From Psammoneis japonica (lineage: Eukaryota): a stretch of DNA of 20,569 nucleotides. A program made the translations under genes and the position numbers. The first letter of the stretch is position 1, and each line of letters opens with the position of its first letter. The notes beneath the pieces were generated by a model. It worked only from the letters and a program-made list of their open reading frames with translations. It searched no databases and had not been told where the DNA came from. The stretch lies in NCBI GenBank assembly GCA_008632985.1, contig QPGO01000121.1:248001-268569 (forward strand). The letters run 5' to 3'. Shown piece by piece: positions 1,903 to 20,569 of this stretch.

Positions 1903-2000
1903 TTCGTAGTTTCGTTTCTGTAGATTTCGTCACCTCGCACAACATGCGGGAGCAATGTCACTGTGCCCTGCGCATGCACCAGGCGCTGAAAAAGAAGATG

Positions 2001-2237
2001 TGTTACGACTTTGTCGTTGTGAAAATTGTGAGCTAGTTTAGAGCAGAGAAAATGGGATCGTGCGAATGGGGAATCTTGCCAAATCCCTGTTCGTTCGCAT
2101 TTGGATCGCATCAAATCGATCGTGCGTTCGCATCATGGATCGTGCGAATCAAGCCATCACGCGCCATGCACGAGTGATGTCATCGTGTGGAATCACGCCA
2201 CCATCGTGGGCCAGACGACGGGCTAGTGTGCTTCACA
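2001..2237 (-). repeat. Putative 5' LTR of the gypsy element (~237 bp)
   Basis: Bounded by TGT (2001) and ACA (2237); CpG-rich with internal repeats GGATCGTGCGAAT (2055, 2137) and CGTTCGCAT (2092, 2125); ~100 bp upstream of gag. The partner LTR is outside the window, so the ends are unconfirmed. Confidence 0.55.
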
Positions 2238-4423
2238 CGGATGCTCTCTTGGCATCCTTCTGGAATTGCCCAAGACCCAGAGCCATGCCCTCCTGTGGTC
2301 GTGCTTCCCAGGCACGTGTTAACAACACCACGTTGCCACGTACAAGAGGCTTGTGCATGGTCTTGCCATGTTGTCCAGCAGCGAGGCATGCTGCACTGAG
2401 GCAGAGAGAGGTGCATGCCTGCACACTGTCCTGAAGAGATTGCATTGTCAGCATCTCTGTGGCATGACCTGTGGACAAAAGGTGCCACTTGATGTGACCA
2501 CAGATGTGGGCCACAGATGAGGATGTTGAACCATGGAGCAAAGAAGTCCTTGAATGTGTGTCCACCACCATGCTGATGTTTTCCACACACAATGATCTGA
2601 ACCCACTGTCATCTGAAATTGAACAGTGCAGTTGGAGGGCACACATGACCAAAGAATGTTGGCAAATTGTTGGGAGCTAAGCCGCAAGTTGAGGCAAGAA
2701 AGAATGTTGTCATTTTGTCAGAGAATGCAACTGTGCCAATGAGCACACAAACAATGAATGAATTGCTGGATCAAGGGGCAATGAATTGCAGTTGGATCCA
2801 GACAGAAACAGAAATGACACCGAGTTGCACAGACTGCCGGTTGTCCCTTGTCCCACCTGTGGTGTGGACAAATTTGGGGTTTGTGGTCCCCTTGTGCAAC
2901 TCAACACCAGTCACTGTCCTGAAGTTAAATTGAGAGATGCAGATGGCATTGTTCACAATGCCACAAAGCTGGCATTGTTCTTCCACCATGTTGCGCCAAC
3001 CACAGGAGCCCTGTGCACAGGTGGTTCTGCCACAGAGTGGAGCTCTTTGATGTGACTCCCAAGACAGTCAACGGCTAGATTGTGGACCTGATTGATGGCC
3101 CACACTCTTGAATTGTAAAAGAGAGAGGATTTGTTGCACTCATGTGAAGTGTTTTGTGGAGTGTGTGCAAGGCACATCACACTTGTTTGATGACATGGTC
3201 AACTTGCTCTGATGATGGACAGCACACCAACTTGTGCAGTTCTAAGTTGAAAGACATCAGCTGCAAAGCAACAGGTGTGCCTTGCAATGACATGGTTGCT
3301 GTGCCAAAGGGATCAGTTTTCCCTCAATGCCAGCCAGCCCCAACTGGCTGGTGGTGGAAGTGGCAGGAGTGGCAGGAGTGCATTGGAGTGTCTGGATTGT
3401 TTGGTGACTCTTTATGAGCAAGAGGCTTCACCATTTTCAATCTCTCACCTTTCAGTTTCATCTTGCTCTTTGGAGTGAATTGTTGTTTGGTTTGCATGAT
3501 TTGTCATTCCACATCAATGGGCAGCTGTTGTCCTGCAAGTTTACAGCTTGTTGCATTGACACCTTCAGCAACCCACAACCATCACAGTTTGCCAAGGCAG
3601 GTGCACCAAGCAGTGCACAAGAAGCCTGATGGAATTCTCTTTTGGTTGCATTGACTTGCCAGCTCAGTGAGCATGTTCCAGCTTGGTTTTGGAAAGTTGC
3701 TCCACACAGCAAAGCATGCTTCATGTGTGCAAAACAATTTTGCTCCATGACAGTTCCCTCTCCACATCATCAAACAGTTTGCCAAAGAGACTCACCTTAA
3801 AAAGCTTTGTCCACTCCAGGTGCATTTCCAGTCCTCCTCACCCATCATGTCAACACAATCCTCCAGCAGCAGCCCATTGATGCCCCCTGCACACCTTTGT
3901 TCATGCAGGATTCTGCCAATGAGAAGAAGAGAATGAAATGTTTCTGCCACAGTGTGTGCCATGCAAGGAGAGTGGCAATCATCCCCAGTGGTGCACGGGC
4001 AGTGGAGCAGGTTTGCAACCTGCCTTGCACATCATTTCATGGAGATTTGCATGAAAGTCTTCACCCCACCACTGAATGTTGGCAAAGTTGCTGTTGCAGA
4101 GTTGCACCACATGTGCCTCTCTGTTGATGCAGTGGAAGGAGGCTGTGCACCCAGAGCTGACCCAGAGCTGAGTGTTTGTGTTTGTGCAGTTGATGGTCAG
4201 GGCTTCTTTGACTTGTGTCTGAGCTGGCTGTGCAAGCAGAGCATCTTGAAGGCACCATGGTGGAGATTCCGGCATGCATCACCAGATGTGCCCAAGGACT
4301 TGCCGTGTCTGTGTGTTGGGGAGACAATCCAATCTGTGGGGCTCAACATGCTTTTGTGCAATGAGTGCACCCACAGACCTTGCAACTGCAGGGCACCAAC
4401 TCTCAGAGGCATCATTTTGGTTG

Positions 4424-4660
4424 GTGTTCAAGAAGAGACTGTTGCAGGGTGTGTGTGGGGCTGCTGGCAAAACAAAGTCTGTCCATCAGTGTGCTTGCCA
4501 GGGTGAAAAATTCTGTGACCTGGACCCATCACATGCCATGGTCAGTGTTCAAGAGAAATGGTTGTGGGGTGCATTGGTGGGGAGCACAGCTGGCCAAACA
4601 AAATCTGTCTGTCAGTGCACTTGCTGGGGTGAAAAACTCTGTGACCTGGACCCACCATCA
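4424..4660. repeat. Diverged tandem duplication, ~121-126 bp unit, 2 copies
   Basis: GTGTTCAAGA at 4424 and 4545; GGGTGAAAAA.TCTGTGACCTGGACCCA at 4501 and 4627. Confidence 0.85.
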
Positions 4661-4916
4661 CGCATTGGCAAAATGTGATGCTGATGCCAATGGCAGTGAA
4701 CGGTTCTTGTGTGCTTCCGTTTTGTGAACTGCAATGTGTCCAAGGACACCTTGTGTCAACAATGCCAGCCATGTCTGCTGTGCAGGCAATGATTGAAGAA
4801 GCTCTTTCCACCAGCAAGGGCAGCAAAGCATCGCACACTTTGAGTGTGATGTGGCTGCTGGCCGGGCTGGGCTGCATGTGTGTGTGACCTGTTTGTTTTT
4901 GTGTGCACTCAGAGCA

Positions 4917-4998
4917 GGAGAAAATGTTGCATGGCAGCGTTGAAGGAACAAGAAGGGGAGAAAATGTTCTTGCATGGCTGCATTGAAGGAACAAGGAG
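4917..4998. repeat. Tandem duplication, ~40 bp unit, 2 copies
   Basis: GGAGAAAATGTT...GCATGGC.GC.TTGAAGGAACAAG at 4917 and 4957. Confidence 0.85.
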
Positions 4999-5849
4999 TG
5001 TTGGTGTGTGCTTCTCAATGTTGCACAATGTGGTGGCTGTGAGAACCCCAAACATGTTTGGGGAAGAACAGGCAGGGTGAAAATGGCCATGCCAGCCTGG
5101 TGTGATGGCACTGCCTTTTCCACCACAAGTGGTCTCATTTCCTGAGTCCATCATGCCTCTGCAAGCTGATCCCTTGTTGGAGCCATCCTTTGTTGCTCAG
5201 CTTGCCAACAACCGGAGGCCTCTGGCAATGAAGCAAGTTTGAAGCTCCTCCCCAGTCAGCACAAGTTGGCAAGTGCTTTCTGCCTCCCAAGGGCACAGCT
5301 GTCCTCACAGAACAACAAGTGGTGTGAGAACATGCCACAATGAATGGAGAGTTGGTCACAAAGCTGCAGGCTTTTTACCCTCTTGCTGTGGAGCAGAGGT
5401 GAGCTGGGTGACTCCTCTGAGAAGTGAGCATGCTTTGTGGCTCACTCTGACATGCAACACCATCACACAACTTGGGGTCTAAGACAGGTTGAGTGAGTTT
5501 GTCCAGAGCAAGGAGAAAGCAACTTTGAGGTTGGACAAGACAGCACTGGGCTTGGGCTGTCATCAGAGTGCCAATGCCTCTTGAAAGAACACTGCAAAGT
5601 GGCCTGCAAAGATCTGCCAGCTTTTGTGAAGCATTGCATGTGAGATGACAGAGATGCAGACAACTGCTCATCACTTTTTTGAGTGGATGAGATTGGGTGA
5701 CTTAGAAGTGTGAGAGGGAGTGGCTGTGTTGTGAGTGCCTGACTGCTGAGGCCCAACCTGATTTGCACCACAGCAGGGCCACCAAGCCTCATCCATGCGT
5801 GGGTTCACAGTGGTGCTGCTCTGTGTTTTGGCACTTTGCTCAGACTTCA

Positions 5850-6330
5850 TTCTCCCACACTTTCTCGCCAGAAAACTCAGCTCCCATGCCACTCTGGCTG
5901 TCATGAACACTGCCTGCTGATTGAACATCCAACAATCATTCTTGTGTTGGGGTGTGTGATCTGCAATTGCTTGCACATTTGTTGAATGCAGTCCCCTCTG
6001 ATTGACAAGTGGTGTGTTGGGGTTCTTGTGCTCACAGGAAGTTGCCCTGGAGCATGAGTTCACATGGCACAGCCATCTGCAGCTGCCACACAACCCAGGT
6101 GCATCTCAGGAAAATTGTTTTTGTTTTTCAAAAATTGATTTGCCAGAGATTGCAGCCCCACCTTGGTTGTTGTTGGAAAGTGTGCAGTGCTGACATCAAC
6201 TTCAGTGATGGCTTTGAAACAAGCAAGTGAAGTTCCTTCTAACATGCACAAGTCAAGGATGGATCTCCATGCTGTGGTCTGATGAAAGTGGCTTGCATTT
6301 CCCACACTTCACCATGTTGTTTGACCTGCC
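5850..6330 (-). pseudogene. PIF/Harbinger (DDE_Tnp_4-like) transposase relic, frameshifted
   Basis: Correctly ordered motifs across frames: GCVAAADG (6095-6072; cf. GCVGAIDG), NP...NQRGLHSTNVQAIAD (6003-5959; cf. NRKGxYSxNVQAxCD), GSVHDS (5914-5897). Boundaries approximate. Confidence 0.65.
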
Positions 6331-7369
6331 TTGGAGGAGCACCCCCTGGCACACTTGTGTGTTCATCAAGCCCTTCTCAGGGCTGTTGTGCCAACACAAG
6401 AGGCTGCACATTTGAAGCTTCAAATGCCACCAGTTGGCCTGTGCCCTGTTGCCAGGTTGAAAAAACTGCCAATTTTTCACTGGGGCCAGGCTTCTCATGG
6501 GGAGACAAGCCACAACTTTCTGACAAGTGGCACATTTGACTGGCTGCAAACATGTCTGCAGTCAACAAGGTAAAAGTTGTGCATGGCCACAACCATTGTC
6601 CATGTGCTTTGTCATGTCTTTGGAGCAGACAAAGTTCAACCTGTCACCAAAATTTCATTTTTGGTGAACACACCCACCCAGTGCAATGAATCCAAATCCA
6701 GGTCATTTTTGGAAGCACACAGATCCATCTTTAAAGCATGACCAAGCCCAAGAGCAAAAATGAGTCCATGCAAAGGACAGCCTCCAGCCCCCTTGCAGCC
6801 AAGTTTGACCTTTTCATTGACTGCCAGCAGCTTGTGGTTGCTTTCTTGCTGCTGTCAACCTTCTTCCACTGGTTGTGTCAAGCAGGTCACAAAGAATGCA
6901 TCTTGCATGATGCCACTCACAGGAGGAGCACACAGCCAGCTGCTCACATCACTTCTTCTTTGGTCTCACTGCCACCAAGGTGTCAAGAGCAAAAGACACT
7001 CTGTTGTGGATGCCATTGCAACAAATGCAAAACAGTTGCCACTTTTGCATTGACAAGTGGCAAGCATTTGTTGCAGCACATGCACACAATCATCACTTTG
7101 TGGAGATTGGGTGCCCACCTTGTGACATTTGACAATGCAAAATGACCCTCACTGACCATTGGGTCACTCTTCTCTTCAGCCATTGAAAAATTTGAATGCG
7201 CTCATGCAAGATTGGCGCAATGGTCATTTGCTCTTCACCTCATGCTCTTTCTCATTCTTCCAAAGAGCAACCAAGAGCAACAGCCACAAGCAGACAGATT
7301 TTAATGCTGTCATTTTGGTGCAGAATGCCATCTGCCATTCTTGTTTGTTCACAGGAGGAGCCATGCCAC

Positions 7370-9505
7370 ATGAATGCTGCACAACATGGAGCCACCCCAG
7401 TGGCACAAGGGGGTCAGAATGCCCCAAACACAAATGCAGTGGCACCACAGCCACAGGCGTCAGTGCAGCAACCAGCTGCAGCTGTGGGGAATGCACTGCC
7501 ACCACTGCAAGTCCCTGTGCCTCCCCACAGCCCAGGGACACAATTTGCAGGACCAGGCCAACCACTGCCACCACTGCCAGGAGGCATCCCAGTGGTGCTT
7601 CTAGCACTGCCAGTGCTGTGGAACCCTCAGAACCATTTTTTGTCAGATGCCAAAGACCCACACCATGGTGACTGCACCAAAGCCATCCTGGATTTTGCCA
7701 TGCCCATGCAAGGAGCATCACGGCACAACCCAGGTGCGCTGCATGACAGGGTTGCATTGGCCTCAAGTCATGACCTCCCAATGACAATCACACTTCATTG
7801 TCATGCCAATGGCACCACCAACAAGGGGCAAATGCAGGCATTGCATCAAGTCTCAACTGGCCCCACTGCTGTGGTGGGACAAGCTTAACCATGGGACAAT
7901 GGCACATGTGCTGTCATGGGCGATCTGACATGCAGCCAATTCACACTCATGGAGTTTGGGGAAGATTTGTGTGCTCCAACCAATCAAGGGACTTGGGTTC
8001 TGACACACAACATGCTCCAAGCAGACATTGCAGCCACACAGAACAGCCTCCATGCATCTGCATGTGCAAGCTGATGCACAGGACTCTGAAGAGGTTCAGA
8101 CATGCAATGTGATGTTCGCGCCTTTCGAGTTTGTCTGCCTGTTCCTGCCTGCACCCCTTGGTCCAAAGGACATGCATGCAAGGGTCCATGGAGCAGCCAC
8201 AGCTGCCAACAAGCTTGCTGCACTGACGCCGCTTCTAGACTGCCTGCGGGTTGAGTGTTGCACCATGCAGAATGCACAGCTCCAGTTGGCAGCAGCACAG
8301 CCTTGGCCAACCATGACGCACCCTCCTGATGATGCACTGATCCATTTCTTTGATTGCAAGGTGGAACGAAACACCTGCCAGGCTGCAGGGGGGGATGCAG
8401 ATCCAACCACAGCAGTTCCAGCCCACAATTGTTGCCATCAAGGGACTCACAATGGAGCAGTGACAGCAGCAGTTGGATGAGGAAGCAAGGTGCATGGCCA
8501 CCCCATGAAGCAAGAGGCCAGCAGAGTTCTGGAGAGTCTTTTGGGTTGCAAAGATCCTGCGTTGGTGCCAGATGCACAACAAGGCTGCACCACCTTCACT
8601 GTGGTCCAGAATGCCATCAATGAGCAGCATCAAGCCCTTCAGGTGCATTTTGACCTGCCAGCAATGGCGAGTCTCGTCACCAAGTTGGCGCAACTTGATT
8701 TTGCAGGGTGCAACCAGGAGGAGCCCACCCAAGGCATCAACCCTTTCTTGTTCAGACTCACTGCCCCACACACAGCTGAGCAAATTGCCTGCCACAACTC
8801 AATGCATGTGCAGTTCCATGGAGAAGCAGGAGGAGTGCCACAGCCACAAGATGTGCAGGCACTCAAGGCACCAGACAAGGCACTGGTGGCAACAACTGTG
8901 CAGGCAGCTGTGCAATCACATGATGGATGCCACCTCATCTGCTCCACCACTCTGGGTGAAAACCACCCTGTTGTGCAATGGCTCACTCTGCAGCATGCAA
9001 ACATGGACAGGCATGCCAACAAGCTGGTGCACTGGCAAACACTTCATCCGACCCCACCTGTTGACTTCCAGCAACATGCACAGGTCAAGCTGCATCATTG
9101 GTTCCTGTCACAAGCAACAGTGCACCAGGAGATCCCATTCATGGGGCACAACATCATTCACAAGGCAGCTGAGGGGGCAATGTTTTGGCACCTCAGCTTG
9201 CTGCCTGCCATGCTTCCCACCAGTGCAGTCGGTGTGACTTCACCAGAAGCTGCCAAGTTGGACATGGCGGGCACCACAGTGTCATTTGGAGCCCGTCTTG
9301 TGACCCGCACTTTGCAACACCATGCAATTGTGCCAACAGGCGCTCACATGAGGTAAAATTGCATTGCACCCAGGACAAGATCGAGCTGCCCAAAGACAAC
9401 CAAGGATGCATCCACTGCAACCCTTGCCACATCAAAGGGCAGTGCAACTCCAACTGCAGCTCCAGCTGTGATCACCACAATGACCTCACCAATGAAGAGC
9501 AGTGA
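7370..9505 (+). pseudogene. Probable DIRS/Ngaro-type (tyrosine-recombinase retrotransposon) ORF1/Gag-like relic with stops and frameshifts
   Basis: Consecutive plus-strand ORF pieces (7196-7888, 8028-8480, 8490-9356, 9185-9505) read as one protein: P/A/Q-rich N-terminus, DPHHGDC, PWD..GD, NVMFAPFEFVCL, LLDCLRV, GINPF, and a C-terminal Cys/His finger CNPCHIKGQCNSNC...DH. Family call is from recollection of diatom elements; no RT or YR domain is visible. Confidence 0.45.
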
Positions 9506-9992
9506 CAATTCCTTGCACAGGGCAAGAAACGCTGGAAGACTGAATGGGTCTTTTGGCAATGGCATGAGTTCGGGGGCCAGTTGCCAAGAGCCATCGTGTG
9601 TGTCGGCGGCACACTCACAACACCAAGAAATTGTGGAGAGTTTCAAAAGGCAGCACAACCACCACACTGCACATGGACAGGATGTTGCTGTTGCAATTTA
9701 CAATGACAAATTAGACAAGCACATTAAAGCCAACACAGCATCATTGCGTCATAAAGGACTCAGCCACTGAGGAGATTGGAGACCACCGAATCACATCTGG
9801 GGTGACGGAAGTGTGTGGTTGGGAGTGACAGGTGGCAGGAAAGTGGCGTGCAGTGTGCTGGGCAGTGAAGAGAAAAGGATTGGCCGATGGTGCAGACAGA
9901 TGGATTTGTGGAAGATGCACTGGTGATGGTCAGGTGTTGGGGCATGTCAGAAAATGAAGATGACTGGGTGGAAGAAAACAATGACTCCTCAC

Positions 9993-10189
9993 TGCTGTCT
10001 AAATGGCAGATGAGTCTCCATGCAGAGACCGTTGCAGGAGCCGAAAGACTGGTGTCGTGATGTCGGCACTGCTGTTGTCATTCTTGTGAGCTCTGTGGCT
10101 CGAAAGCAAACTGCATCGCGTGACGTGCACGGAACTGAGAGCACACATGATTGTGTGCGATGAACCAAAATCTTGTTCAAATCCTGTCA
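9993..10189 (-). repeat. Putative 3' LTR of the copia element (~197 bp)
   Basis: On the minus strand it begins TGACAGG immediately after the purine run GGGGAG and ends ...AGACAGCA at ~9993 (9996 is an alternative end). Confidence 0.6.
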
Positions 10190-12144
10190 CTCCCCAGTTT
10201 GCTTGAGGGGTCAACAGCAATGGATTCGAAGTCAGATTGGTTGAAAGCCTCGGGGTCGAAGTTCCAAAACATTAAAGGATAAAGGAGGTTCCAGACTTGG
10301 GAGCAACCCCAATGCTTGCTGAGGATGTCAGCCGGGTTGCGGGAACCTTCGACAAAGTGAAACTCGAGGAATCCGGAGGCAATCGCCTCACGCACACGAT
10401 GGAACGAGAGGGCAGTGTGTTGCTTGTGTAACTTGGAGTGCGGGATGATGGCACTGTCCACAACCGACTTGTTGTCCCCAAACATGTGACATGTTTCACG
10501 AATGGGAACGCCAAGGCAATGTAAAGTGATGCGCAGATCAATGATCTGATCGACACATGTCCTTGCGGCAACAAACTTGGATCCATGCATGGCAGTCTCG
10601 ACTGTTGCTTGTTTCTTAGAGAACCAATCAGCCGGAAACTTGTTGAGGAAATGGAGGATGCCAGTGACAGAGCGTCCAGTGAGCATGCAATGGAACAAGC
10701 TCGCATCGACACAGTGCGTGGTGGTGACGAACTTGCCATGTGGCTCGGGTGCATCTTGCGGGAGCAGCTCTTCTACCTCCCCATGTGCAGATTGAGCCCA
10801 ATCGCACACGGGCTTGGGAAGGTCCGAACAGTCGGGCTCCTCGGTGTGCACTCGAAGGGCGCCATGACGCATCTTGGAGAGGAATCCGCAGATGCGTTTG
10901 GCACGGTCCAGGTGGCCTTGATGGGGCGCTGCATGGAAGCTGGACAGGGACATGACAGCTGCAGCAATGTCAATGCGGCCCAGAGACACGGCCCATTGCA
11001 GGGATCCAATCAAGGACTGGAGCTGGTGGATGCCATCCGGTTTGAGCAATTCTGAGGTGTCGAGTTCAGGGTGGTCACCCTTGTCAAGGGGTGAAAGCAC
11101 ATCAGTGCAGGGCTTCTCCCCAAAGAGGCATGTGCAGTTGTCAACCATGCGCTCAATGTGCTTGCGGGGAGCAAGGCACAGGGTGCCGTCTGGGTCACGG
11201 GTGAAGTCGCAGCCAAGATGGAACTCCAATGGTCCAGTGCCCTTGAGCTTGAACTTGCACTTCTCCATGAGGGTGTCTGCAAAAACCTGGGGGTCCTTCA
11301 TGGCGAAGGCCAGGTCATCCACATGCACTGCCACGCATTCGCAGAGGTCACCATTCCTGCGCAGCCAGATGTCAGGTTCGGCCTTGCATGGGAAGAAGCC
11401 TTCGGCACGCAAGCAATTGGCAAAGCATTCATGCCATCTGAGACCGGAGCTGCGGAGTCTGTACAAGGCCTTGTGGATGACGAGGATGTGTCCTTCCAGG
11501 TCGCCAAACTCGGGGCCTGCTGCGATGCACAGTTTCTCCTTGGTCGCAGCTTCAAGGCAGGCATTCCCAATGTCAGTGGCCCAGGTCTCTAGTTCATTGA
11601 GTTTGGCCAGGAAGATCATCATTCGCAGGCCACGGAGGGACACCACTCCGGAATGGACACTGTCGACGGGCACGTCTGTGAGGTGTCCATCGGCGACAAG
11701 CCTTGCTTTGTGCCGTCCGTCATGTTTGATGTCGCAGACGAGATGTGCCCGGATCTTCTTGTGTCCTGATGGAGCACTGGAGTCCTTGTGGTGTCCGCAG
11801 TCGTGAAAGACCTCGCACTCATCAAGTTGGGTCATCTCGAGGTCCGTTGCGTCTCCCCACTTGCGGTTGCCATTGCACTCATCAAGGGCCATGGCATGCT
11901 TGTAGTCCCGTGGTGCTTCATGCCCGCACTTGTGTCGTGGCGCAGCATGAAAGGAGCGTAACTTGGCTTGGTTGGCCATGCGGAACAGCTTCTTCTGACG
12001 AAGTGCCATCTTGCAAAAACATCTCCATCCTTCGGTTTCTAGAAGGCCGTGCTCACGCGCGTAGATGGCACAGGTGATGGGGTCATCCTTGGCAATGATG
12101 GCAAGGGGTTCGGACGTGATCTCCCCACTCTCCCATTCAAGCAT
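10177..12144 (-). pseudogene. pol: Copia reverse transcriptase + RNase H (open frame, RT motif altered to HVDD)
   Basis: 655 aa: KARLVADG, TDIGNACLEA, KALYRLRSSG, VHVDDL, LEFHLG, SLIGSLQW...R.DI, CVDAS...RSVTG, W.SKKQ.TVETA.HGS.FVA, GDNKSV, H.VRE, NPADILSK. Only 4 Tyr. Confidence 0.93.
10190..10195 (-). other. Polypurine tract core (GGGGAG) of the copia element
   Basis: Minus strand AAACTGGGGAG|TGACA at the end of pol, the usual copia PPT/LTR junction. Confidence 0.6.
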
Positions 12145-13150
12145 GACGTTGTAGCTTGAGCCTTTCCAAGAGGGATCATGGGGTCACAATGGTCCTTCGT
12201 GAGATGCGATGTGTCGGAACTTCCAGAGAGTTGAGTCCTCGTCTTCTTGCTCAATGTGGTGCATGATGTCATTGCAGGCCAGGACTTCCTTGCATTCATC
12301 ATTGTTGATGGAGCAAATGAACTTGACCAGTTCAGGATTGCCTCTGATTTTCCAGTCGTGGTCCTCAACGGCTTTGACGATGCGGGCTCTGTGGCGTTGT
12401 CCATCCTCTTGTGGCTTCATGAGGAAGGTGCGTCCCACGACATCCTCGGGGTCAAAGACTGGCATTTTGGGCATCCTGATCGCCTCCCCATCTGGTGAAT
12501 CTGGCAAATTCTCGGAGTCGTGACGGGATTTAATGACAGGGTCAGCAGATTCCTTGTCAGGAGGATCAAGACGCAGGTTTGGAGCAGACGGATCACGGGC
12601 GGAGCGCACGTTGGAACAGCAGAGAATCTTCTGAGTGTCGTCAGAAAGAATCTCAAACGTCATTTGGTGACCAACATGTTTGGCGATGCCAATGAAGCGA
12701 CCACACAATTCACGGGATTCGGGCAGCCAGTCGGAATCATCCAGGTGGCAGAGCACACAGGTTCCCACCATTGAAAGCGGAGGAGCGGGCTGATGTCGGG
12801 AGCAGAGCCGGACAGCACCTCGGTGGGGGCATGCCAGTGGAGCTTGGCGGACGCCGTGTGGTTGAGCACAAAACACACGCACATCAGGGTGAGCAGCCAG
12901 GTGTGAGCCGGGGACCCAAAGCGATCCATGATGGTGTTGGCCATGGTCTTCACAGTTTTGTGGCGGTGTTCAGCAAAATTCTGATGCTGGTGATGGGGCT
13001 CGCTTTGCCAACCAGAGATGAAGAGGGCACGAAGGATGCCAAGAACCTTGTTGCTGATCTCAACCTGAGCACGGTCGCTGATGAGCTTGGACGGGGCACC
13101 GCGATTGCAAATGTTGTCTTTGAGGGTGTTGACAAATTCTTTGTCAGTTT
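12145..13150 (-). pseudogene. pol: Copia integrase core and IN-RT linker, with one frameshift (~12752) and one in-frame TGA (12186-12184)
   Basis: KTDKEFVNTLKDNICNRGAPSKLISDRAQVEISNKV...WQSEPHHQHQNFAEHRHKTVK...PDISPLLRFQWWEPV / HLDD...GRFIGIAKHVGH.MTF...HEGPL*PHDPSWKGSSYNV, continuing in frame into the 655 aa ORF. Confidence 0.9.
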
Positions 13151-13229
13151 TTTTAATTCTGCGATTGCTTGTGCTGAATGTGCCTGCATGTTTTTAGTGC
13201 CACGCTCTCCGCAGAACTGCCGACACACC

Positions 13230-15083
13230 ATGGCGTCTCGTTCCGTCGCTGATGGTGGCCATGCCCCCAACGACAACAATGACATCAACATGGCGGACGA
13301 CATCACTGTTGATCACGCATCCAACAAACCTTCTTCTAAACCGAAAGAGCCTCCCCATGTGGAGATCACCCCACGCTTTGACATTCGTGGCCCGGAGGCG
13401 ACGTGCAAGCCGATGACCCTCACCACCGCTCATCTTCAAGTTTTGCAACAAATCCCATTCACGTGTCACAACGATGTTCAGATCCTGGACAACCACAACA
13501 ACCAGATCACCAATGTCAACATTGCAGAATGGATTGCAACCCTTCAGCACGAACGTCACTTCACGATTTCTGCGACTCGCAGTGGAGAAAAACGCCCTGT
13601 CGTCCACCGCCTGTGCCACCGCATTTTAACCGAAGTCCCCCTTCGAGAGATCCGTTCTCATCCTCATGTTCAGAGCATTTTAGACTCAAACAACATGGGT
13701 TTGAAGCGCCACTGCTGGAATGAGTCAGTGATCGACACGGCGACTCCGGCATGTTACGTCGCTGCCCCATCCAAGCACACTCCAATCGACGAAGCCACCA
13801 AGTTGTTTGCAAAAGATCCAGGCGAATTCAAGTCCAAGATGCCGAAATTTCGTCTCGCACCTACCTCCATTCGTGCCGATAACGATCAATTGGCTCCTCC
13901 CCTTCGCACCGTCACTTGTGCCATCGAAGTGCAACAAGACGATTGCCGCACTGCAGGAAAAACCTTGCTGTGCGCCTCCAACAAGCTGCCGACACACATT
14001 GTCACGGCGAAGACACGGTGCATGTCGCCACTCGCCTTCTATAACACCGTCAAACTCCAAGCTCGTCGCAATCATGATGCTTGCGTGGTTCTGCTGTTGT
14101 GCACCTCCCCGGATGTGATGTTTTATTTGGAAAACCACATCAGGGCCATCTCCGGAGTGAAAGAGATCTGCAAGTCTAGCACCACCCCTGGTCGGTGCAA
14201 TGTGTTGGTCAAACGTACGGATTTCAAAGCTTCCCGTGCTGGTGTCTCTACATGCATCATGGATCAAATTCCAAATGTCCCCAAAGAATCTTGGCCGTCT
14301 CCTCCATTTCCCGATCAACCTCACGTGTCTGGTGTGCTTGACGAGCAGTCCGACACCAGCAAATCCATGGTGTCTGCGAGCATCTGCAGTTTGGAGTCCC
14401 CAACCTTCTCAGATGCATCTCCATTGACGGACACCCAGGCCTCGAGGTCAAACCGTCCTCCTCCTCCGGCACAGTTCACGGGCAGAGGCCATGGTCGTGG
14501 CAGCACCCCTGGTCGAGGCCACTCTCCAAGCCCGTCAGTCCCTCCGCAAATCTTCGCCCCCAGGCCCTCCTTCCAGGCAACTCCTTGCGGACATTCTGGA
14601 CACCCAGGAATCTTGTCCCCTCCGCATTCGTACGCTCAAGCGACTCAGTCGTCTACAAGTTCTTCCCTTGCGTCAGCACAGATGGCGGAAGTACAACAGA
14701 CCCCACCACAAATGCAACAGAAGAACGATGCGGCTCTAGCAGATCTCCGCCGACAGCATTCTCAGGACATGGAAGCTTTGCACAACACCTTTGCCAAACA
14801 ACACTCCCAGGACATGGCCACCATGCAATTTCAGCATTCCCAACAGTTGGCTGCAGTGCAGGAACAAATGAACCAAATTGTTCAACCACTTCAAGCAAAC
14901 CAACCCATTCAGAGTTCAGCCAGAAAACGCCCCAACAACATGGAAACTCCTGAATGCCCTGGCGACCACAAAGAACGGGAGACGGATTTTTGGGCAGGGG
15001 TTGGACTTCGCTGCCTCCACCCCCTCAAGAAATTGGGCGACCTCCTGACATTGTTTCCTCGCCCCACTCACCACTTGCGCTAA
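13230..15083 (+). CDS. LINE ORF1 protein (~617 aa from ATG 13230)
   Basis: 3' part of track ORF 12771-15083; globular N-half, P/S-rich region with GRG repeats, Q-rich coiled coil with three QHSQ repeats (~14750-14850); sits upstream of ORF2. The ancestral stop may have been earlier (e.g. TGG at 14991 from TAG; inference). Confidence 0.7.
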   Translation: MASRSVADGGHAPNDNNDINMADDITVDHASNKPSSKPKEPPHVEITPRFDIRGPEATCKPMTLTTAHLQVLQQIPFTCHNDVQILDNHNNQITNVNIAEWIATLQHERHFTISATRSGEKRPVVHRLCHRILTEVPLREIRSHPHVQSILDSNNMGLKRHCWNESVIDTATPACYVAAPSKHTPIDEATKLFAKDPGEFKSKMPKFRLAPTSIRADNDQLAPPLRTVTCAIEVQQDDCRTAGKTLLCASNKLPTHIVTAKTRCMSPLAFYNTVKLQARRNHDACVVLLLCTSPDVMFYLENHIRAISGVKEICKSSTTPGRCNVLVKRTDFKASRAGVSTCIMDQIPNVPKESWPSPPFPDQPHVSGVLDEQSDTSKSMVSASICSLESPTFSDASPLTDTQASRSNRPPPPAQFTGRGHGRGSTPGRGHSPSPSVPPQIFAPRPSFQATPCGHSGHPGILSPPHSYAQATQSSTSSSLASAQMAEVQQTPPQMQQKNDAALADLRRQHSQDMEALHNTFAKQHSQDMATMQFQHSQQLAAVQEQMNQIVQPLQANQPIQSSARKRPNNMETPECPGDHKERETDFWAGVGLRCLHPLKKLGDLLTLFPRPTHHLR

Positions 15084-15195
15084 CATCAATTTTCCGTCGG
15101 ACTTCACGACACCGGAGTTTTTCCTTCCAAACCAACACCAAGTTGATGCAGTGCTCTAAGCCTCAGTCTTCTCTTCGGAGGAGCATGGCCCAACA

Positions 15196-18100
15196 ATGAG
15201 TCGTTCGCCTTCCACTGAAGATCCAGCTCTTGCTTGGCAGAACATCCTAGATGGACGCAGTTGCCACCCTCCCACAGATCGTCGGATAGATTTTTCTCGA
15301 CTAAAGACCAACGCACCTGTGGGCGACGAACTCCGGCCCAAGCTTTCTCACCACACGCACCTTTATGCCTTCAATGCCAACAGTTGTAAATTCGACAAGC
15401 GTGGCGGTGACATGAACGAGTGCTGTCAACTCGCCTCCGAAATTCAAGCCGATGTCATTGGCATCTCGGAGGTGTGCCTCGACACCACCCAATTTGACAT
15501 TTTATCCATGTGTAGATCTGCCATTTCCAAGTCTTTACATCATGGGCGGTCCACCTTTTCAAGCAGTTCCACCACCTTTGCAACGCAATGCAAACCGGGT
15601 GGAACGGCCTTGTTGTCATGTGGCTCGATTTCTGCTCGCTTCCGGACTCAAGAATCCGACCCGCTCGGCAGGTGGTCAATTCAAGTCTTCGATGGCAGGA
15701 ATGGACGCCAAGTTATGTTTGTCTCTTGCTGTCGAGTTTGCGCTAAGAACCAACAACACCCAGGGAAGACAACGGCGTGCGCTCAACAATTGGCCCTCCT
15801 CCGGCAATTGGGGCGCCGGTCACTCGATCCCAGGAAGGCGTTTTGTGCAGACTTGTCCCGAGTCTTGCAGGATTTTCTGGTGGATTCCAATCGAGAAGTC
15901 ATTGTTTTTGGGGACTTTAACACTGATTTCACCTGTGACACTGACTCTTTGGCTGCCGTTGCCCAGCGCTTCAATTTGTCTGACGTCCTGTTTAACATCA
16001 TGGGCGACACTGAGTTCTCCACATGTGCCAGAGGTTCCCGGCGTCTTGACTACGTGCTGGCCTCTCCTGGCGCTCTTGCTGCAGCTCGCTTCGGTGGACA
16101 TGAAGCCTTTGGATGTCGAGTCACTTCTGATCATCGTGCTTGCTTCGTGGACTTTGACACTGCAGCTCTTTTCGGCAACCCGACTGTCAATTTACCCAAG
16201 GCATCCTTCAGGGACATTCAGGCTACGTCTGAACCACAGCTCACCTCTTGTCTACAGGCAGTCGGCCCAATGATTCAGAGTCGTTCGGCATTGCAACACT
16301 CTTTCCAGCTGCTGGAACTTGACGCTCCAGATCATGCTCTGGCTGAACGGTTGGACCGTGATCTCCTACAGTTCTCTCTTTCCGCTGCCAAGAAATGCCG
16401 AATTCATCGCGAACCCGACTGGTCGGTTGAACTTTCAGACCTGAGGTGCCGGGTGCACATCTTTTCCCGCCTCGCATCCATGATGAGGACAAAATTGGAC
16501 TGCGCATCACAGATTCGAGCAATGCGAGACAAACTGAGTGGATCCTTCACCATCCCCGACACTTTGCAAGGTTGTCAAGAGGCGCTGCGCGCTGCTCAAG
16601 ACGATTGCAAGCAACCAGCGGCTGACAGTGTCGTGCGCTGCGAAAGGGAAGTTTCCGAGAGGACAGCCGCACTCGATCTGGAAGGCACTGAGGAGTCACG
16701 TAAACAGGCAACTGTCTTGTGCAACATCCGCAAGGCAGAAGAGATGAAAAAGCTGTTCAGGAAGATTGACTCATGCCACACTCAGAGGGACACAGGCATT
16801 CAGAGCGTCCAAGTTCCCAGCAATCCTTCCATTCCTCCCAAAGAATGTCAAGATTGGATCGCTGTTGATGCTCCGGAAGAGGCAGCCACTGCTCTCCGTC
16901 AACGCAGTCAAAAACACTTCGGTCAGGCACAAGGCACCCCTCCAACGGCACCTCCGTTGTCCATGGACCTGGGCCATGAAGGTGACACTGTCATGGTGGA
17001 TCTTGTTCTTGATGGTGAGCATGACACGTCGGCTTTGAACAAAGCAACTGCCCTTTTCATCAACCACTTGCGTCGCCATTCCCCAGTCTCTGCACCGAAT
17101 CTTCCATCTGCATCAGATCTCGAAGGAAAAATAAAACGTTGGAAAGAATCCACCTCCACGTCCATTTGCTCCGGCCTCCACCCAGGTCATTGGAAAGCAA
17201 TGTATGCTCCTCATCGGTTCTCAGATGCAACTGATTCCGAAGGCAATCCCACCCCTGAACGTGAGGCCCTCGATGAAGTTCAACAATCCCTCACTCAAAT
17301 CAGGTTGAATCTGCTTAACTGTGCCCTTCGTTGGGGATGCTCCTTTCACCGCTGGCAAGACACTGTCAACGTGATGATCTTTAAAGAGCCAGGCAACAAC
17401 AAGATGCATCGTCTCCGTGTCATCCATGTCTGCGAAGCTGACTTTCAATTAATCTTGAGCATCAAGTGGCGCGCTCTGGCCCAAAACATGGAACACCGCC
17501 GATTGTGCAACTCGGGGATCTGCGGCACTCGCGCCTTCTTAAATGCCAACACTCCTGTGTGCCTTGAAGAACTCATGCTCGAGATTGGCCGTGCCTCCCG
17601 AAAATCCGCCATTCACAGCGATGATGATTGCACATCGTGTTGCGATCGGAATGTTCCCGCTCTGGTTGCAGTTGAGAGCCACAGCAATGGCGTGCCCAAA
17701 GAAGTCACTCAAGTCGCTGACGCTGCCATTCACAAGGCTCGCTGCTGGTTGCGAACGGTGCTGGGCCTGTCACTAACTTCTTGTTCTCACTCTGATGACT
17801 TCCCCATTTGTGGAACAGGACAGGGCAGCGGAAACTCTCCGTTTTGCTGGAACCAAATTTGCAACAGTCTGTTCCAGATCTTCAATCAACGGGCACATGG
17901 TGCATTTTTCGAGTCCCCAGATCACTCCCTCTCGCTGCAGATGTTCAATGGAGGATGTGTCGACGACACGTCCAAGCAGGTGAACGATTTTTGTTCGAGT
18001 CCTCAACCTTGTGTCCTCGATTTGGCTTTCAAGATGCAGGAAGATAATCAACTGTGGTGCGACCTTTTGAACGCGGCTGGCCACGAGTTAGAATTACCCA

Positions 18101-20569
18101 AATGCTCCTTCCACGCTGTCGAATGGATGTTTGCAGAGGACGGCGAACCTTACCTTTGACCCTGCAACGAGGACATTGACATTGAAATCTCTTCTGCAGA
18201 CCGCACCACGACTGGGTCAAGCAAACAATTGTCCGCATGCTCTTCTCACAAGACACTTGGACACTGCAAAGCTCCAGCGGGGACTCAAAAGACCCAGCAC
18301 TCGGCTCTGAAACAAAAGAGTGACGGCATTGCCCTGTTCCTTCGGTCTTGTCCTTTAGATCGACACGAGTCATGGACTCACCATTTTGCTTGTCATCTGT
18401 CTGCAACCACGTGTGTTCTCCCGAACACTCACTTCAAGGAGAAAGAGTTGCTCGAAGTACAGAGGAAGGCCATGCATGCCATTTTTGCCAAATGCGGACA
18501 CAATCGGAACTCGAAACGTGACGTCCTCTTCGGACCTCATTCCCTGGGAGGCGGAGGTTTCAGGTCTTTAGACGTGGAACAGGGTGCAGCGCAGGTTCTG
18601 CAGTTTCTCATCCACTGGCGGGGCTTTGGGCAACCTCAGGTGTTGTCGCGAATCGCTGTGTCGTGGATTCAGTTGCAGCTTGGCACAGGTGTGAGTTTTC
18701 TTCAGGACGTCCATGCCAAGCTCCCTCGTTCCGAATCGAAATGGTTCATGTCCTTGCGTTCATTCTTGGCCCGGATCGATGCCACCATCGATTGTGATCA
18801 CACTGGAGTGCTTCCACTCCAGCGAGACAACGACCAATGCATCATGGACGTTGTGCTTCAATCCCAGGCGTTCAGTGATCGTGAGATGCGGTGGGTCAAC
18901 TGCTGTCGTCTTCATCCAAATGTTTTGACTCTGTCGGATGTTGCCTCTCCGGATGGTTTTTCGCTCGATCCCTTTAAAGTGAACGGCCGATCGTTCCTTC
19001 TCAGCAGTCGCAGCACTCTGAATCCTGTCGAACAACAACGTCCATCCGCTTGGGCATGGAAACAGTGGCGTCGAGCCTGTTCCTTGTTTTGCAAACCAGA
19101 CTCGCTCGATCTACGACACCCTTCAGGTCAACGGGTTGTGCCAGCTACGGAAATGCGCATGACACATGTCGCATGTTACGAATCCTCCGAGGATTGCTTG
19201 TGCATTCGTGGAGATTCGGGTTTCGAGATTTTCCCAGTGCACCAAGGTTGTGCGGAGACTCTCACCGCTCTGGAAAACGTTCCAGATCTTTCCCCAGCCG
19301 CTTCCCCTGTGCCAGCAGATGCGACTACAACCGGTTTGTGGCGGATCAAGTCACTCGGTTCTCCAGCATCCTTGCCAACAGTCCCTCCCGTCCCGAATGA
19401 TTTCTTGGCCATGCTGCGGTCTCTTCCTCGGTGGGAATCTGCTCTGTTCGAAAAATTGCATTTACATTGGTCCACATTTGAAATCGCTGAGCTCCTCGTC
19501 ACCCACAAGGTTTCAGCAGCTAGCGACGGTTCGGTCCTCCATTTCAAAGGTGCATTCGGGTGGACGATTGCGATCGACGGGGTTCCTCTTGTGGATTGTG
19601 CCGGTCCAGTTTTCGGTTTTCGCCCATCGTCTTGTCATGCGGAGGCACACGGTCCACTGTCTTTTCTCCGTTTTCTGATCCGATTGTCAGACTGTTGTTC
19701 TACACAGGTCAGCGGCGCCGATTTGCATTGCGACAATTCCGCTCTCATTCGCACCATCTCGAATTTCCAGGTGATTCCTCATCCTGCCGACGAGGAGGAG
19801 ATCCAAGGAGACTTCCACTGGCGTTTTCACATTGCTGGCACTCTCTCTCCGGATTGGGACATTGTCAATGAGGTCTTCCATTCCCCAAGACAGCTGTCAG
19901 AAGCACGCACTGATGAACTGTCGTGTCCTGCAGTCGAGATTCACTGGGTGAAGGGACACCAAGACGACATTCTTCCCATTGACTCTCTCTCTCAAGCGGC
20001 AAAGTTGAACACACGTGCCGACAGACTCGCTGGACAATTCCAAGGTCGATTTACGGGCGATGCTCTTGCTGCTCCCCGCATGCCTCATTGCCGAGCAAAC
20101 CTGCTTCTTCAAGGAGCCACTGTTTCTTCCAAATGCAAGCCGGTCATCAGATGTCAGGCATCGAGTCCCGCACTGGTTCAGTGCATGAAAGAGAAACACA
20201 GTTGGTCCGACGAAGTGTGTGCATCGATTGATTGGGACGTTCATTCGAAATTGATGTCACAAAACATTCGTCGAAAAGTCAGTGCCGTCAAGCTGGTTCA
20301 AGATCTTCTGCCCACCAACAAGATTGTACACAGATGCAATCCGACACATCCGGACTGTTGCACTCACTGTCAGGACCCCATGGAAGACAGAGATCACATT
20401 CTCCGTTGCCCTCATGATGAAGCCTGGCGCAGAAAATTTTTACAAGGATTGCGCAAGAAGTGCGATGATGTTCACACGTCTCCTTCCTTACGAGACTTGA
20501 CAATTTCGGCTGTTGAAGCATGGTTTCGAGGCGAGCTTTTGCACTCGGAACAATTTCATCACAGCGTCG
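15196..20569 (+). pseudogene. LINE ORF2: AP endonuclease, reverse transcriptase, RNase H, CCHC knuckle; one in-frame TGA at 18157-18159
   Basis: APE: FNAN, DVIGISE, PGGT, DPLGRWS, GDFN, RLDYVL, SDHR. RT: KEPG...LRVIH..EAD, DCTSCCDR, GTGQGSGNSP, GCVDDT, LELPKC. The same frame continues after the TGA with no stop to the window end (manual translation): KTLG, FGP.SLGG, ASDGSV, GAFGW, AEAHG, CDNSAL, DWD, HWVKGHQD, LNTRAD, C.HC....EDRDHILRC. Confidence 0.92.

Follow-up and report, generated by a model that had tools for sequence, protein, structure and literature searches.

TpA removal probably precedes CpG decay in a nest of dead mobile elements of Psammoneis japonica

In the dead mobile elements of a 20,569-nt stretch of Psammoneis japonica DNA (contig QPGO01000121.1, positions 248,001 to 268,569; the whole stretch is hereafter called the window), TpA removal probably preceded CpG decay, and the two losses probably reflect two distinct transition processes, each directed at a dinucleotide. 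The window consists of a nest of such elements and of an old zone, and no host gene was detected in it. The following features were delineated:

1..2400, minus strand: integrase-bearing mobile element, the least converted of the window (Pfam Integrase_H2C2 in 1-825, minus strand)
2401..9990, no strand: old zone, a doubly erased block defined by its composition, in which no coding relic could be recognised
4463..4657, plus strand: two 69-nt repeat units in the old zone, 86% identical
9991..10266, minus strand: 3' non-coding end of the copia, probably an LTR (CpG density rises from 10030 and polyprotein homology stops at 10267; the boundary with the old zone at 9991 is approximate)
10267..13151, minus strand: pol fragment of the copia (RVT_2), whose homology covers residues 661-1640 of the polyprotein (1648 aa) of the related element L001
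13152..20569, plus strand: LINE that interrupts the copia and runs off the window (Exo_endo_phos domain; 5' end approximate)
18157..18159, plus strand: sole in-frame stop (TGA) of the LINE ORF2, of which 1803 codons lie inside the window

Over the whole window, including 1-2400, 130 TpA are observed for 1170 expected, and CA and TG display observed/expected ratios (O/E) of 1.66 and 1.59. Calculated per block, the TpA O/E is 0.226 in 1-2400 (CpG 0.94), 0.145 in the LINE block 12696-20569 (64 TpA for 440 expected; CpG 444 for 541.9, O/E 0.82), 0.107 in the copia block 9991-12695 (15 for 140.8; CpG 133 for 198.1, O/E 0.67) and 0.05 in the old zone (23 for 462.5). In the old zone, CpG is also scarce (52 for 485.9, O/E 0.107, ranging from 0.035 to 0.18 within the zone), and the O/E of CA and TG reach 1.96 and 1.95. 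The composition thus agrees directly with the initial annotation, which had described this zone as poor in both dinucleotides, the LINE as rich in CpG with TpA nearly gone, and a stretch at about 5870-7198 as free of CpG: none is counted in 5867-7198, where about 80 were estimated from base composition. The same annotation had let the TpA depletion begin at 2400, a limit that has to be abandoned given the ratio of 0.226 in 1-2400. Within the window CpG is near-absent only in 2401-9990, with sharp borders: dense CpG stops at 2382, the following CpG is at 2683 and density is regained from 10030. Added together, the O/E of the four pyrimidine-purine steps give 3.7-4.1 in each of the four blocks, as predicted for transitions within those steps. 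The GC content of the blocks is 51-54%, versus 44-46% in related copia elements. In all seven ORFs of transposable elements Tyr represents 0-0.7% of the residues, whereas His represents 3.5-7.3% and Cys 2.8-4.7%; the ORF 829-1929 contains 0.54% Tyr, whereas 10 homologues have a median of 2.18%, and the median is 3.14% across 45 LINE homologues.

The copia element carries a TGA at 12184-12186 and at least one frameshift, located between 12720 and 12756. The related copia elements come from other metagenomes and have a TpA O/E of 0.41-0.62; one of them possesses an intact ORF of 1648 aa, and no relative was found in scans of genome contigs and viral contigs. In this comparison and in that of the LINE, ancestral codons were deduced at positions conserved among relatives of 26-60% identity. 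The 27 conserved Tyr of the copia have become Cys in 11 cases and His in eight, and three remain Tyr, so that 19 of the 22 outcomes in these three classes (19/27 overall) are converted to TGY or CAY. Among 22 Arg conserved in relatives, 12 are retained (10 as CGN) and the others include four His, two Cys and one Gln, which confirms the R to H/C changes proposed earlier; ten of 17 CGN Arg codons are kept and seven lost. First-position G>A changes are preceded by C in 9/9 cases. The E to K changes that had been proposed in the motifs GSKFVA and TLKDN are also confirmed: Glu is present in both relatives aligned at the first, where the preceding base is C, and L001 reads TLEDN at the second. A TGA had further been proposed at a probable Arg codon; the stop exists at 12184-12186, but its origin from Arg is weakly founded, as Arg is found in one of three relatives and Asp in the other two.

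The LINE ORF2 is homologous to LINE proteins of 1.9-2.1 kaa across 15292-20556. It aligns with one of them (P0004) in a single HSP and therefore contains no frameshift, and its one stop is the TGA 18157-18159, in a column where the homologues have no conserved residue; the earlier description of an ORF2 with one stop and an unbroken frame was accurate. The 16 Tyr codons conserved in the family now encode one Tyr, ten Cys, four His and one Trp (15/16 lost, of which 14 to TGY or CAY). Of 26 conserved Arg columns, by comparison, 20 still read Arg (15 as CGN), three His and one Cys, and 15 of the 19 inferred CGN codons are kept. The ancestral TA and CG are thus directly readable at the conserved codons of both elements, and both losses feed TG and CA, through Tyr to Cys/His and Arg to His/Cys/Gln, as had been suggested. 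Only the 5' LINE/copia junction lies in the window, near 13151. Summed contig depth, which is not a copy number and serves as a rough rank, is highest in the bin 9908-10574, falls from 13362 to 337 across approximately 13243 and is lowest in the old zone (59-485).

The order of the two losses can be observed directly within each element. In the LINE, 15/16 conserved Tyr codons are lost versus 4/19 CGN Arg codons, and in the copia 19/22 versus 7/17; expressed as log-survival within the same element, CpG loss is about 4-12 times slower than TpA loss. Since both processes had equal time inside a single element, the order TpA before CpG holds, and the claim of a faster and earlier TpA conversion is upheld. 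All differing conserved positions were then classified, with priority given to the TpA and CpG classes, a bias bounded by the control at about 2-3% each. The copia (n = 100) displays 24 TpA-type changes, 17 CpG-type changes, 7 other transitions, 25 transversions and 27 multi-step changes; the LINE (n = 84) displays 22, 5, 9, 19 and 29, respectively, and the control (L001 against its relatives L002/3, n = 280) only 7, 6, 38, 111 and 118. The TpA-type counts of the two elements are thus similar (24 versus 22) whereas the CpG-type counts differ (17 versus 5), a trend (Fisher p 0.065) opposite to what would be seen if TpA loss followed divergence in the manner of CpG loss. The initial annotation spoke of a saturation of TpA loss. 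The rapid early loss is found; true saturation is not, as the TpA O/E continues to fall from block to block (0.23, 0.145, 0.107 and 0.05), with a tail of slow contexts.

The dependence of TpA conversion on flanking bases is also directly visible. With the related copia elements as baseline, no surviving TpA out of 130 lies in ATAT, for 10% expected; ATAC and ATAG are each represented at 0.12 times the baseline, TTAA at 3.6 times and CTAG at 5.1 times (chi-square p 4e-28). The contexts TAA, TTA and CTAG contain 23/23 of the survivors of the old zone versus 69/107 of those of the younger elements (p 2e-4). The order of flanks, ATA/TAT far ahead of TAC, then TAG and TAA, constitutes a fingerprint that any candidate enzyme has to match, adenine deaminase and thymine modifier alike. 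On the sense strand the TpA products are TG in 28 cases and CA in 18 (p 0.18). At Tyr codons preceded by A, four CA and three TG are found, versus eight CA and 20 TG after the other bases, a difference in the predicted direction (p 0.20). For CpG, a sense-strand bias (CA 18, TG 4, p 0.004) was considered and rejected, given that C and G sites straddling a codon boundary reveal G>A alone; inside CGN codons, CA occurs in eight cases and TG in three.

Other copies of the LINE directly display private changes posterior to insertion. The comparison of copies with the window listed 40 of 2202 variant places; the 18 listed positions at which every other LINE contig differs from the window are all accounted for by seven TA-type changes, five CG-type changes and three CA/TG doubles. 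The seven TA-type positions are single sites where other copies have TA and the window copy reads CA or TG, and at three listed places one LINE copy has CA and another TG. The presence of TA in other copies implies that the family consensus is not TpA-free, an explanation that the initial annotation had itself named as fatal to its proposal. Part of the TpA conversions of the LINE could nevertheless be inherited from a source copy that was already mutated. Editing of the RNA or cDNA before integration, in the style of ADAR or APOBEC, was rejected on the basis of the two products on the sense strand and of the private differences between copies; it is also opposed by the fact that the most converted block is the old zone, which contains no recognisable retroelement.

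The old zone was searched for traces of its origin. None of its 64 ORFs of at least 70 aa passed the Pfam cut-off, tblastn queries comprising the L001 ORFs and 60 LINE-type proteins matched nothing below position 10000, and its longest ORFs were equalled or beaten in 116, 251 and 28 of 300 dinucleotide shuffles. The many stops and frameshifts that the initial annotation ascribed to this zone thus have no recognised reading frame in which to be counted. In a purine/pyrimidine alphabet, its best match to the rest of the window scores 34-35, inside the range of shuffles (28-48), while the two repeat units at 4463..4657 score 67 over 70 columns. Read from their sequences, these units differ almost entirely by transitions, with one transversion and three CA-versus-TG doubles. 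The TA-free state of the zone recurs in the contigs of run X1, where 25 differences are counted over 6229 bases. Among the listed differences, 7 of 24 CpG sites vary versus 11 sites in about 5000 other bases, which makes the CpG sites about 50-fold more variable between the window and these contigs. The slower clock is hence fast in its own right, and the CpG process is slow in relative terms only. The old zone is presumably of greater age, and not simply targeted in another way. If it were at mutational equilibrium, its residual frequencies would imply similar rates for TpA and CpG, and such a case would fit a mutator that quits old diverged DNA and not a steady clock.

These observations are consistent with a mechanism in two parts. 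A first process would convert TpA to TpG or CpA (A:T to G:C) after insertion and on both strands, with ATA/TAT as the fastest and TTAA and CTAG as the slowest contexts, and would take approximately 85-95% of the TpA before the reading frames break. Such a change is impossible for cytosine deamination or fungal RIP, and the agent is presumably an enzyme that either deaminates adenine or modifies thymine. A second process would convert CpG to TpG or CpA, most likely because 5-methylcytosine is deaminated where transposon DNA is methylated, and would be nearly complete only in 2401-9990, a block of low copy number.

The first process may be the same kind of targeted hypermutation as in Bigelowiella natans, where Mettrop et al. 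(bioRxiv 10.64898/2026.01.13.699255) counted 231 de novo mutations in two viral inserts, 230 of them A>G or T>C, all at TpA. The two systems share A:T>G:C changes at TpA on both strands and a TpA depletion accompanied by CpA and TpG enrichment; in B. natans, the TpA-depleted CDS show an enrichment of Pfam families of transposable elements, reverse-transcriptase and endonuclease-RT domains included (same preprint). In the window, TpA-type changes number 24 (copia) and 22 (LINE) versus 7/280 in the control, and a post-insertion origin on both strands is indicated by the seven listed sites with TA in other copies and by the products TG 28 and CA 18. The systems differ in that B. natans concerns mainly integrated NCLDV and virophage DNA, with a rate measured directly in mutation-accumulation lines and a rho of 0.45 in viral inserts, where many TpA are left, whereas the elements described here are a LINE, a copia and an integrase element, known from their fossil footprint and far closer to completion (rho 0.05-0.23). 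A de novo rate orders of magnitude above the genomic background would have an indirect estimate here in the log-survival ratios and the CpG polymorphism. The preprint mentions neither CpG nor "context", and its Results contain no kinetic ordering of two processes.

The second process resembles the decay of 5mC of vertebrate type by the CpG deficit, the excess of TpG and CpA, the replacement of Arg CGN codons by His, Cys or Gln (7/22 conserved Arg in the copia and 4/26 in the LINE) and G>A found only after C; in the old zone, the CpG O/E of 0.107 goes with CA and TG at 1.95. The CpG O/E of mammals is roughly 0.2. The values of the old zone (0.035-0.18) are lower, and its CpG sites are about 50-fold more variable than the others. 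Diatom transposons are CG-methylated through DNMT5a, a methylation known from P. tricornutum (Hoguin et al. 2023, PMC9998398). Concerning adenine methylation, eukaryotic 6mA is reported to mark active genes, at ApT, without any enrichment on transposons, and seems weakly mutagenic, and P. tricornutum is reported to have 5mC only (bioRxiv 10.1101/2024.10.28.620566); these published data argue against a 6mA-linked loss of adenine. The RIP of Neurospora and other ascomycetes resembles the present case, being transition-only, directed at a dinucleotide and inactivating mobile DNA after insertion. RIP, however, turns CpA into TpA and raises the TpA and AT content, whereas TpA is removed here and GC increased. 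RIP, which Mettrop et al. (bioRxiv 10.64898/2026.01.13.699255) present as C>T changes in repeats, was rejected on this opposite direction (TpA O/E 0.05-0.23; GC 51-54% versus 44-46% in related copia elements).

A single deaminase-type mutator acting on silent DNA, whose substrates would be the A of TpA and, at lower efficiency, the C or 5mC of CpG, would explain why the two losses share the same domains and are both transitions at pyrimidine-purine steps. The CpG variability of the old zone (7/24 sites versus 11 listed in about 5000 other bases) also exceeds that of ordinary CpG decay, and Mettrop et al. (bioRxiv 10.64898/2026.01.13.699255) cite ADAT2-type enzymes for which deamination of A as well as of C in DNA has been reported. 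This explanation is unlikely: the two extents are uncoupled in the LINE (15/16 Tyr versus 4/19 CGN Arg lost), the relatives L002 and L003 have a CpG O/E of 0.23-0.25 with a mild TpA deficit (0.41), which indicates that CpG decay happens without TpA erasure, and CpG is nowhere mentioned in the B. natans preprint. The CpG contrast could also reflect targeting, by heavy methylation of the old zone or a CpG-directed burst, and not age. The abrupt changes of CpG density at element borders (2382, 2683 and 10030) and the lack of any datable feature of the zone in the ORF, homology and repeat checks speak for it, but successive insertions into older DNA also give sharp borders. Moreover, the CpG-type loss is graded with nesting (LINE 5, interrupted copia 17) at equal TpA-type counts, the old zone is the lowest in summed contig depth and its one internal repeat differs mostly by transitions, so that we consider targeting quite improbable.

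Two further explanations were considered. Modified DNA motifs cause systematic long-read errors, and modified TpA in silent chromatin might have been miscalled as TG or CA during sequencing or assembly. Such an artefact is very hard to reconcile with the run X1 contigs, which repeat the TA-free old zone (25 differences in 6229 bases), with the occurrence of TA, CA or TG at the same sites in different copies, or with the de novo TpA mutations seen with Illumina in B. natans (bioRxiv 10.64898/2026.01.13.699255). Lastly, the families could be natively poor in TpA, through a TpA-free consensus or compositional selection, given that a mild TpA deficit is usual in coding DNA and reaches 0.41-0.62 in the related copia elements. 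Conserved Tyr, however, has become Cys or His, the only residues one TA>TG or TA>CA change away from TAY (14/16 in the LINE, 19/27 in the copia), other LINE copies keep TA at seven listed sites, and the most depleted block is the non-coding old zone; native poverty is already contradicted by the Tyr outcomes and the other LINE copies, and its probability is close to nil.

With two separate processes as the preferred reading, a broader proposal can be made tentatively, at low confidence: silent DNA of this lineage could be patrolled by an active editing defence, in which a TpA editor (fastest at ATAT, slowest at TTAA and CTAG, acting hundreds-fold above background and requiring that its target stay recognisable) would be coupled to a CpG eraser about 50-fold above other sites. 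A literature search on diatom transposable elements and TpA returned no title on the topic. If the order of rates holds genome-wide, residual TpA (fast and context-graded) and residual CpG (slower) would provide two independent readings of insertion age. Should the defence reading be true, they would form a two-handed clock dating every insertion, and would point to a conserved eukaryotic DNA-editing immunity common to distant algae. With the present elements, a process described in a single 2026 preprint on a chlorarachniophyte would be extended to the retroelements of a second, distant lineage.

The entire window is mobile-element DNA, and no host gene was found within it. The following features were detected, L001 being a related copia element from another metagenome with an intact polyprotein:

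1-825, minus strand: integrase zinc-binding domain (Pfam)
10177-12183, minus strand: copia-type reverse transcriptase, RVT_2 (Pfam)
10267-12720 and 12756-13151, minus strand: copia homology (tblastn with the 1648-aa L001 polyprotein)
15160-18159, plus strand: endonuclease/exonuclease/phosphatase domain (Pfam)
15292-20556, plus strand: LINE homology in one piece (alignment of homologues of 1.9-2.1 kaa)

Since the two copia segments are in different frames, the copia carries one frameshift; it also lacks residues 1-660 of the polyprotein (tblastn with L001). The LINE ORF2 had been described as free of frameshifts with one stop; this is borne out by the single-piece alignment (15292-20556) and by a single stop among its 1803 codons in the window, the TGA at 18157-18159. 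The summed depth of the aligned contigs of sequencing run X1 falls from 13362 to 337 at ~13243, which agrees with the LINE 5' end cutting the copia near 13151, the only LINE/copia junction inside the window. With a threshold of E 0.01, Pfam gives no match for the C-terminal 803 aa of ORF2 (18160-20568, plus strand); this part nevertheless aligns over its full length to LINE proteins of ~1900-2100 aa. Upstream of the integrase domain, a 367-aa ORF (829-1929, minus strand) has no Pfam match; its 17 homologues (26-43% identity) are likewise without Pfam domains. The end of this block (2042-2400) contains short sub-repeats of a ATCGTGCGAAT-like word.

Dinucleotide content by block (observed/expected counts, O/E in brackets; CA and TG as O/E)
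Whole window: TpA 130/~1170 (0.11); CA 1.66; TG 1.59
1-2400, integrase element: TpA 28/124.0 (0.226); CpG 164/173.9 (0.94); CA 1.54; TG 1.43
2401-9990, old zone: TpA 23/462.5 (0.05); CpG 52/485.9 (0.107); CA 1.96; TG 1.95
9991-12695, copia: TpA 15/140.8 (0.107); CpG 133/198.1 (0.67); CA 1.62; TG 1.43
12696-20569, LINE: TpA 64/440 (0.145); CpG 444/541.9 (0.82); CA 1.43; TG 1.34

The initial annotation placed TpA depletion over 2400-20569; it is present there but is not limited to it, the block 1-2400 being also depleted (0.226). Its other compositional claims hold: the old zone is poor in both TpA and CpG (0.05 and 0.107), with zero CpG between 5867 and 7198, and the LINE is rich in CpG while its TpA is nearly gone (0.82 versus 0.145). 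Summed from the block values, the four pyrimidine-purine steps total 3.7-4.1 O/E units in every block, and this constancy indicates that both losses are transitions staying within that class. In the related copia elements L001-L003, from other metagenome records, TpA O/E is 0.41-0.62 and GC 44-46%. L002 (1-2503) and L003 (1-1935) display strong CpG loss (O/E 0.23-0.25) with TpA only mildly short (0.41), the reverse of the order of loss in the window.

TA is obligatory in Tyr codons. All seven element ORFs of the window contain 0-0.7% Tyr, 3.5-7.3% His and 2.8-4.7% Cys, the medians for 45 LINE homologues being 3.14% Tyr and 1.75% Cys. At the 16 LINE columns where at least 60% of these homologues have Tyr, the window residue is Tyr once, Cys 10 times, His four times and Trp once. 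For the copia, a position was considered conserved when all aligned relatives (at least two) share the same residue; the 27 such Tyr positions are represented in the window by 3 Tyr, 11 Cys, 8 His and 5 other residues; for conserved G, P, A, H, W, F, S and C, by comparison, retention is 95-100%. Every one of the four Tyr codons still present in the LINE and the copia is TAC, with C or G as the preceding base. Among 40 listed places of 2202, which are not a random sample, 18 LINE positions were found where all aligned run X1 contigs disagree with the window: seven are TA in the other copies and CA or TG in the window, five are CG in the other copies and TG or CA in the window, six form three CA-versus-TG doubles, and none is of any other type. 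The family consensus is thus not itself TpA-free, since other copies hold TA at seven of these sites, and part of the LINE conversion is private to the window copy.

As both processes have acted for an equal time within one element, their rates can be compared without cross-element dating. The LINE has lost 15/16 conserved Tyr codons and 4/19 conserved Arg (15 now CGN, 4 His or Cys); in the copia, conversion has reached 7/17 Arg and, if only Y, C and H outcomes are counted, 19/22 Tyr. The log-survival ratio of TpA versus CpG is ~12 in the LINE and ~4 in the copia, and TpA conversion is therefore faster and earlier than CpG decay, as had been proposed.

Single-step changes at conserved positions (differing: copia 100/423, LINE 84/365, control L001 versus L002/L003 280)
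TpA-type: copia 24, LINE 22, control 7
CpG-type: copia 17, LINE 5, control 6
Other transitions: copia 7, LINE 9, control 38
Transversions: copia 25, LINE 19, control 111
Multi-step: copia 27, LINE 29, control 118

TpA-type change is equally advanced in both elements (24 versus 22), and CpG-type change tends to be higher in the interrupted element, the copia (Fisher p 0.065, a trend only). All nine first-position G>A changes in the copia are preceded by C (four E>K, two D>N, two V>I and one G>R). Both E->K changes reported earlier are confirmed: the residue of GSKFVA is E in both relatives aligned there, and the L001 counterpart of TLKDN is TLEDN. The copia TGA at 12184-12186 is present, but its assignment to an ancestral Arg is weak, R being found in only one of three relatives. 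Along the LINE ORF2 (15589-20184), TG is the product at every one of the nine converted Tyr positions from residue 144 to residue 875; of the six that come after (1075-1675), four have CA. This run, noticed post hoc on few sites, may reflect strand-coordinated tracts.

The surviving TpAs are unevenly distributed among contexts (chi-square p 4e-28).

TpA contexts, strand-merged (survivors in the window; baseline share in L001-L003)
ATAT: 0/130; 10.1%
ATAC: 3/130; 18.8%
ATAG: 2/130; 13.2%
TTAA: 23/130; 5.0%
CTAG: 11/130; 1.7%

A proxy denominator within the window leaves this ranking unchanged. Per strand, conversion is much faster at TAT than at TAC, and slowest at TAG and TAA. TpA loss had been said to saturate; it is near-complete, but there is no true saturation, since residual TpA still falls (0.226, 0.145, 0.107, 0.05), in parallel with CpG, and the kinetics are context-dependent. 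All 23 old-zone survivors are in TAA/TTA or CTAG, against 69/107 in the three younger elements (Fisher p 2e-4). A process still at work, on sites that convert quickly or slowly, fits these data better than a single burst, although the old-zone survivors may also be newly arisen TpAs.

The old zone is plausibly old. None of its 64 ORFs of at least 70 aa reaches the Pfam cut-off, the LINE and copia proteins have no tblastn match in it, and matching in a purine/pyrimidine alphabet, blind to both processes, gave nothing above shuffles. As hardly any TAA or TAG can occur, its longest ORFs are of a length usual for such dinucleotide content. The sole internal repeat (4463-4531 and 4589-4657, 86% identical) differs by one transversion, the rest being transitions, and includes three CA-versus-TG doubles, which would arise where an original TA or CG changed separately in the two copies. 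Summed contig depth, which is not equal to copy number, is 59-485 in the old zone, 330-725 in the LINE and 13000-97000 in the copia and integrase elements. CA accounts for 0.38-0.46 of CA+TG across 3901-6400; across 6901-9400 its share is 0.52-0.63, the 7901 bin being the only one under 0.59. Both base skews also shift in 7401-9400 (C>G and A>T). Either a regional strand bias in product choice or two source sequences would account for this.

Run X1 contigs near-identical to the old zone display 25 differences in 6229 bases (records 1-5). Records 1-3 contain 23 in 5056 bases; among the 18 listed, seven create or destroy CpG and just one involves TpA. Over these records, 7 of 24 CpG sites differ (20 in the window and 4 only in the contigs), against 11 listed differences, at most 16, at ~5000 non-CpG bases. 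The resulting CpG excess per base is ~50-fold, a rough figure since it covers 18 of the 23 differences, regardless of their direction, and the contigs are possibly from another haplotype or strain. It agrees with the depth of depletion (O/E 0.035 in 5001-7400), and the CpG clock is not slow in absolute terms. The few remaining old-zone CpGs are grouped in short patches (8117-8126, 8227-8247, 8668-8689 and 9595-9607). Multiplying ~50-fold by 4-12-fold would give the fast TpA contexts a rate several hundred times that of background; in Bigelowiella natans (B. natans), the measured TpA rate exceeds background by about three orders of magnitude (Mettrop et al., bioRxiv 10.64898/2026.01.13.699255).

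Because deamination of cytosine cannot yield A:T>G:C change at TpA, the two processes must be chemically distinct. Editing of one RNA or cDNA strand before integration is argued against by the presence of both sense-strand products (TG 28, CA 18) and by the differences among integrated copies. Instead of adenine deamination, thymine could be modified to 5-hydroxymethyl- or 5-formyl-uracil, which would then mispair with G; the two routes are inseparable from sequence because TpA is self-complementary. For integrated giant-virus and virophage DNA of B. natans, where 230/231 mutations are TpA-only, Mettrop et al. suggest that an ADAT2-like enzyme deaminates adenine; the accessible text of that preprint reports no flank preference, with 0 occurrences of "context". 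6mA is an unlikely cause of TpA loss: according to the accessible text of bioRxiv 10.1101/2024.10.28.620566, eukaryotic 6mA is at ApT on active genes, transposons are not enriched, and P. tricornutum has 5mC only. CpG loss would most simply be read as 5mC deamination; diatom transposon methylation is DNMT5a-dependent (Hoguin et al. 2023, PMC9998398).

Overall, the observation is real and its two-process interpretation is supported. The TpA process of the window would be the second known case of a type so far described a single time, in 2026, from B. natans, an alga of an unrelated lineage. The ordering of the two clocks, based on two datable elements in one window, is a useful extension. The present analysis adds a codon-anchored rate comparison within elements, a flank preference with a slow tail and an estimate from CpG polymorphism.
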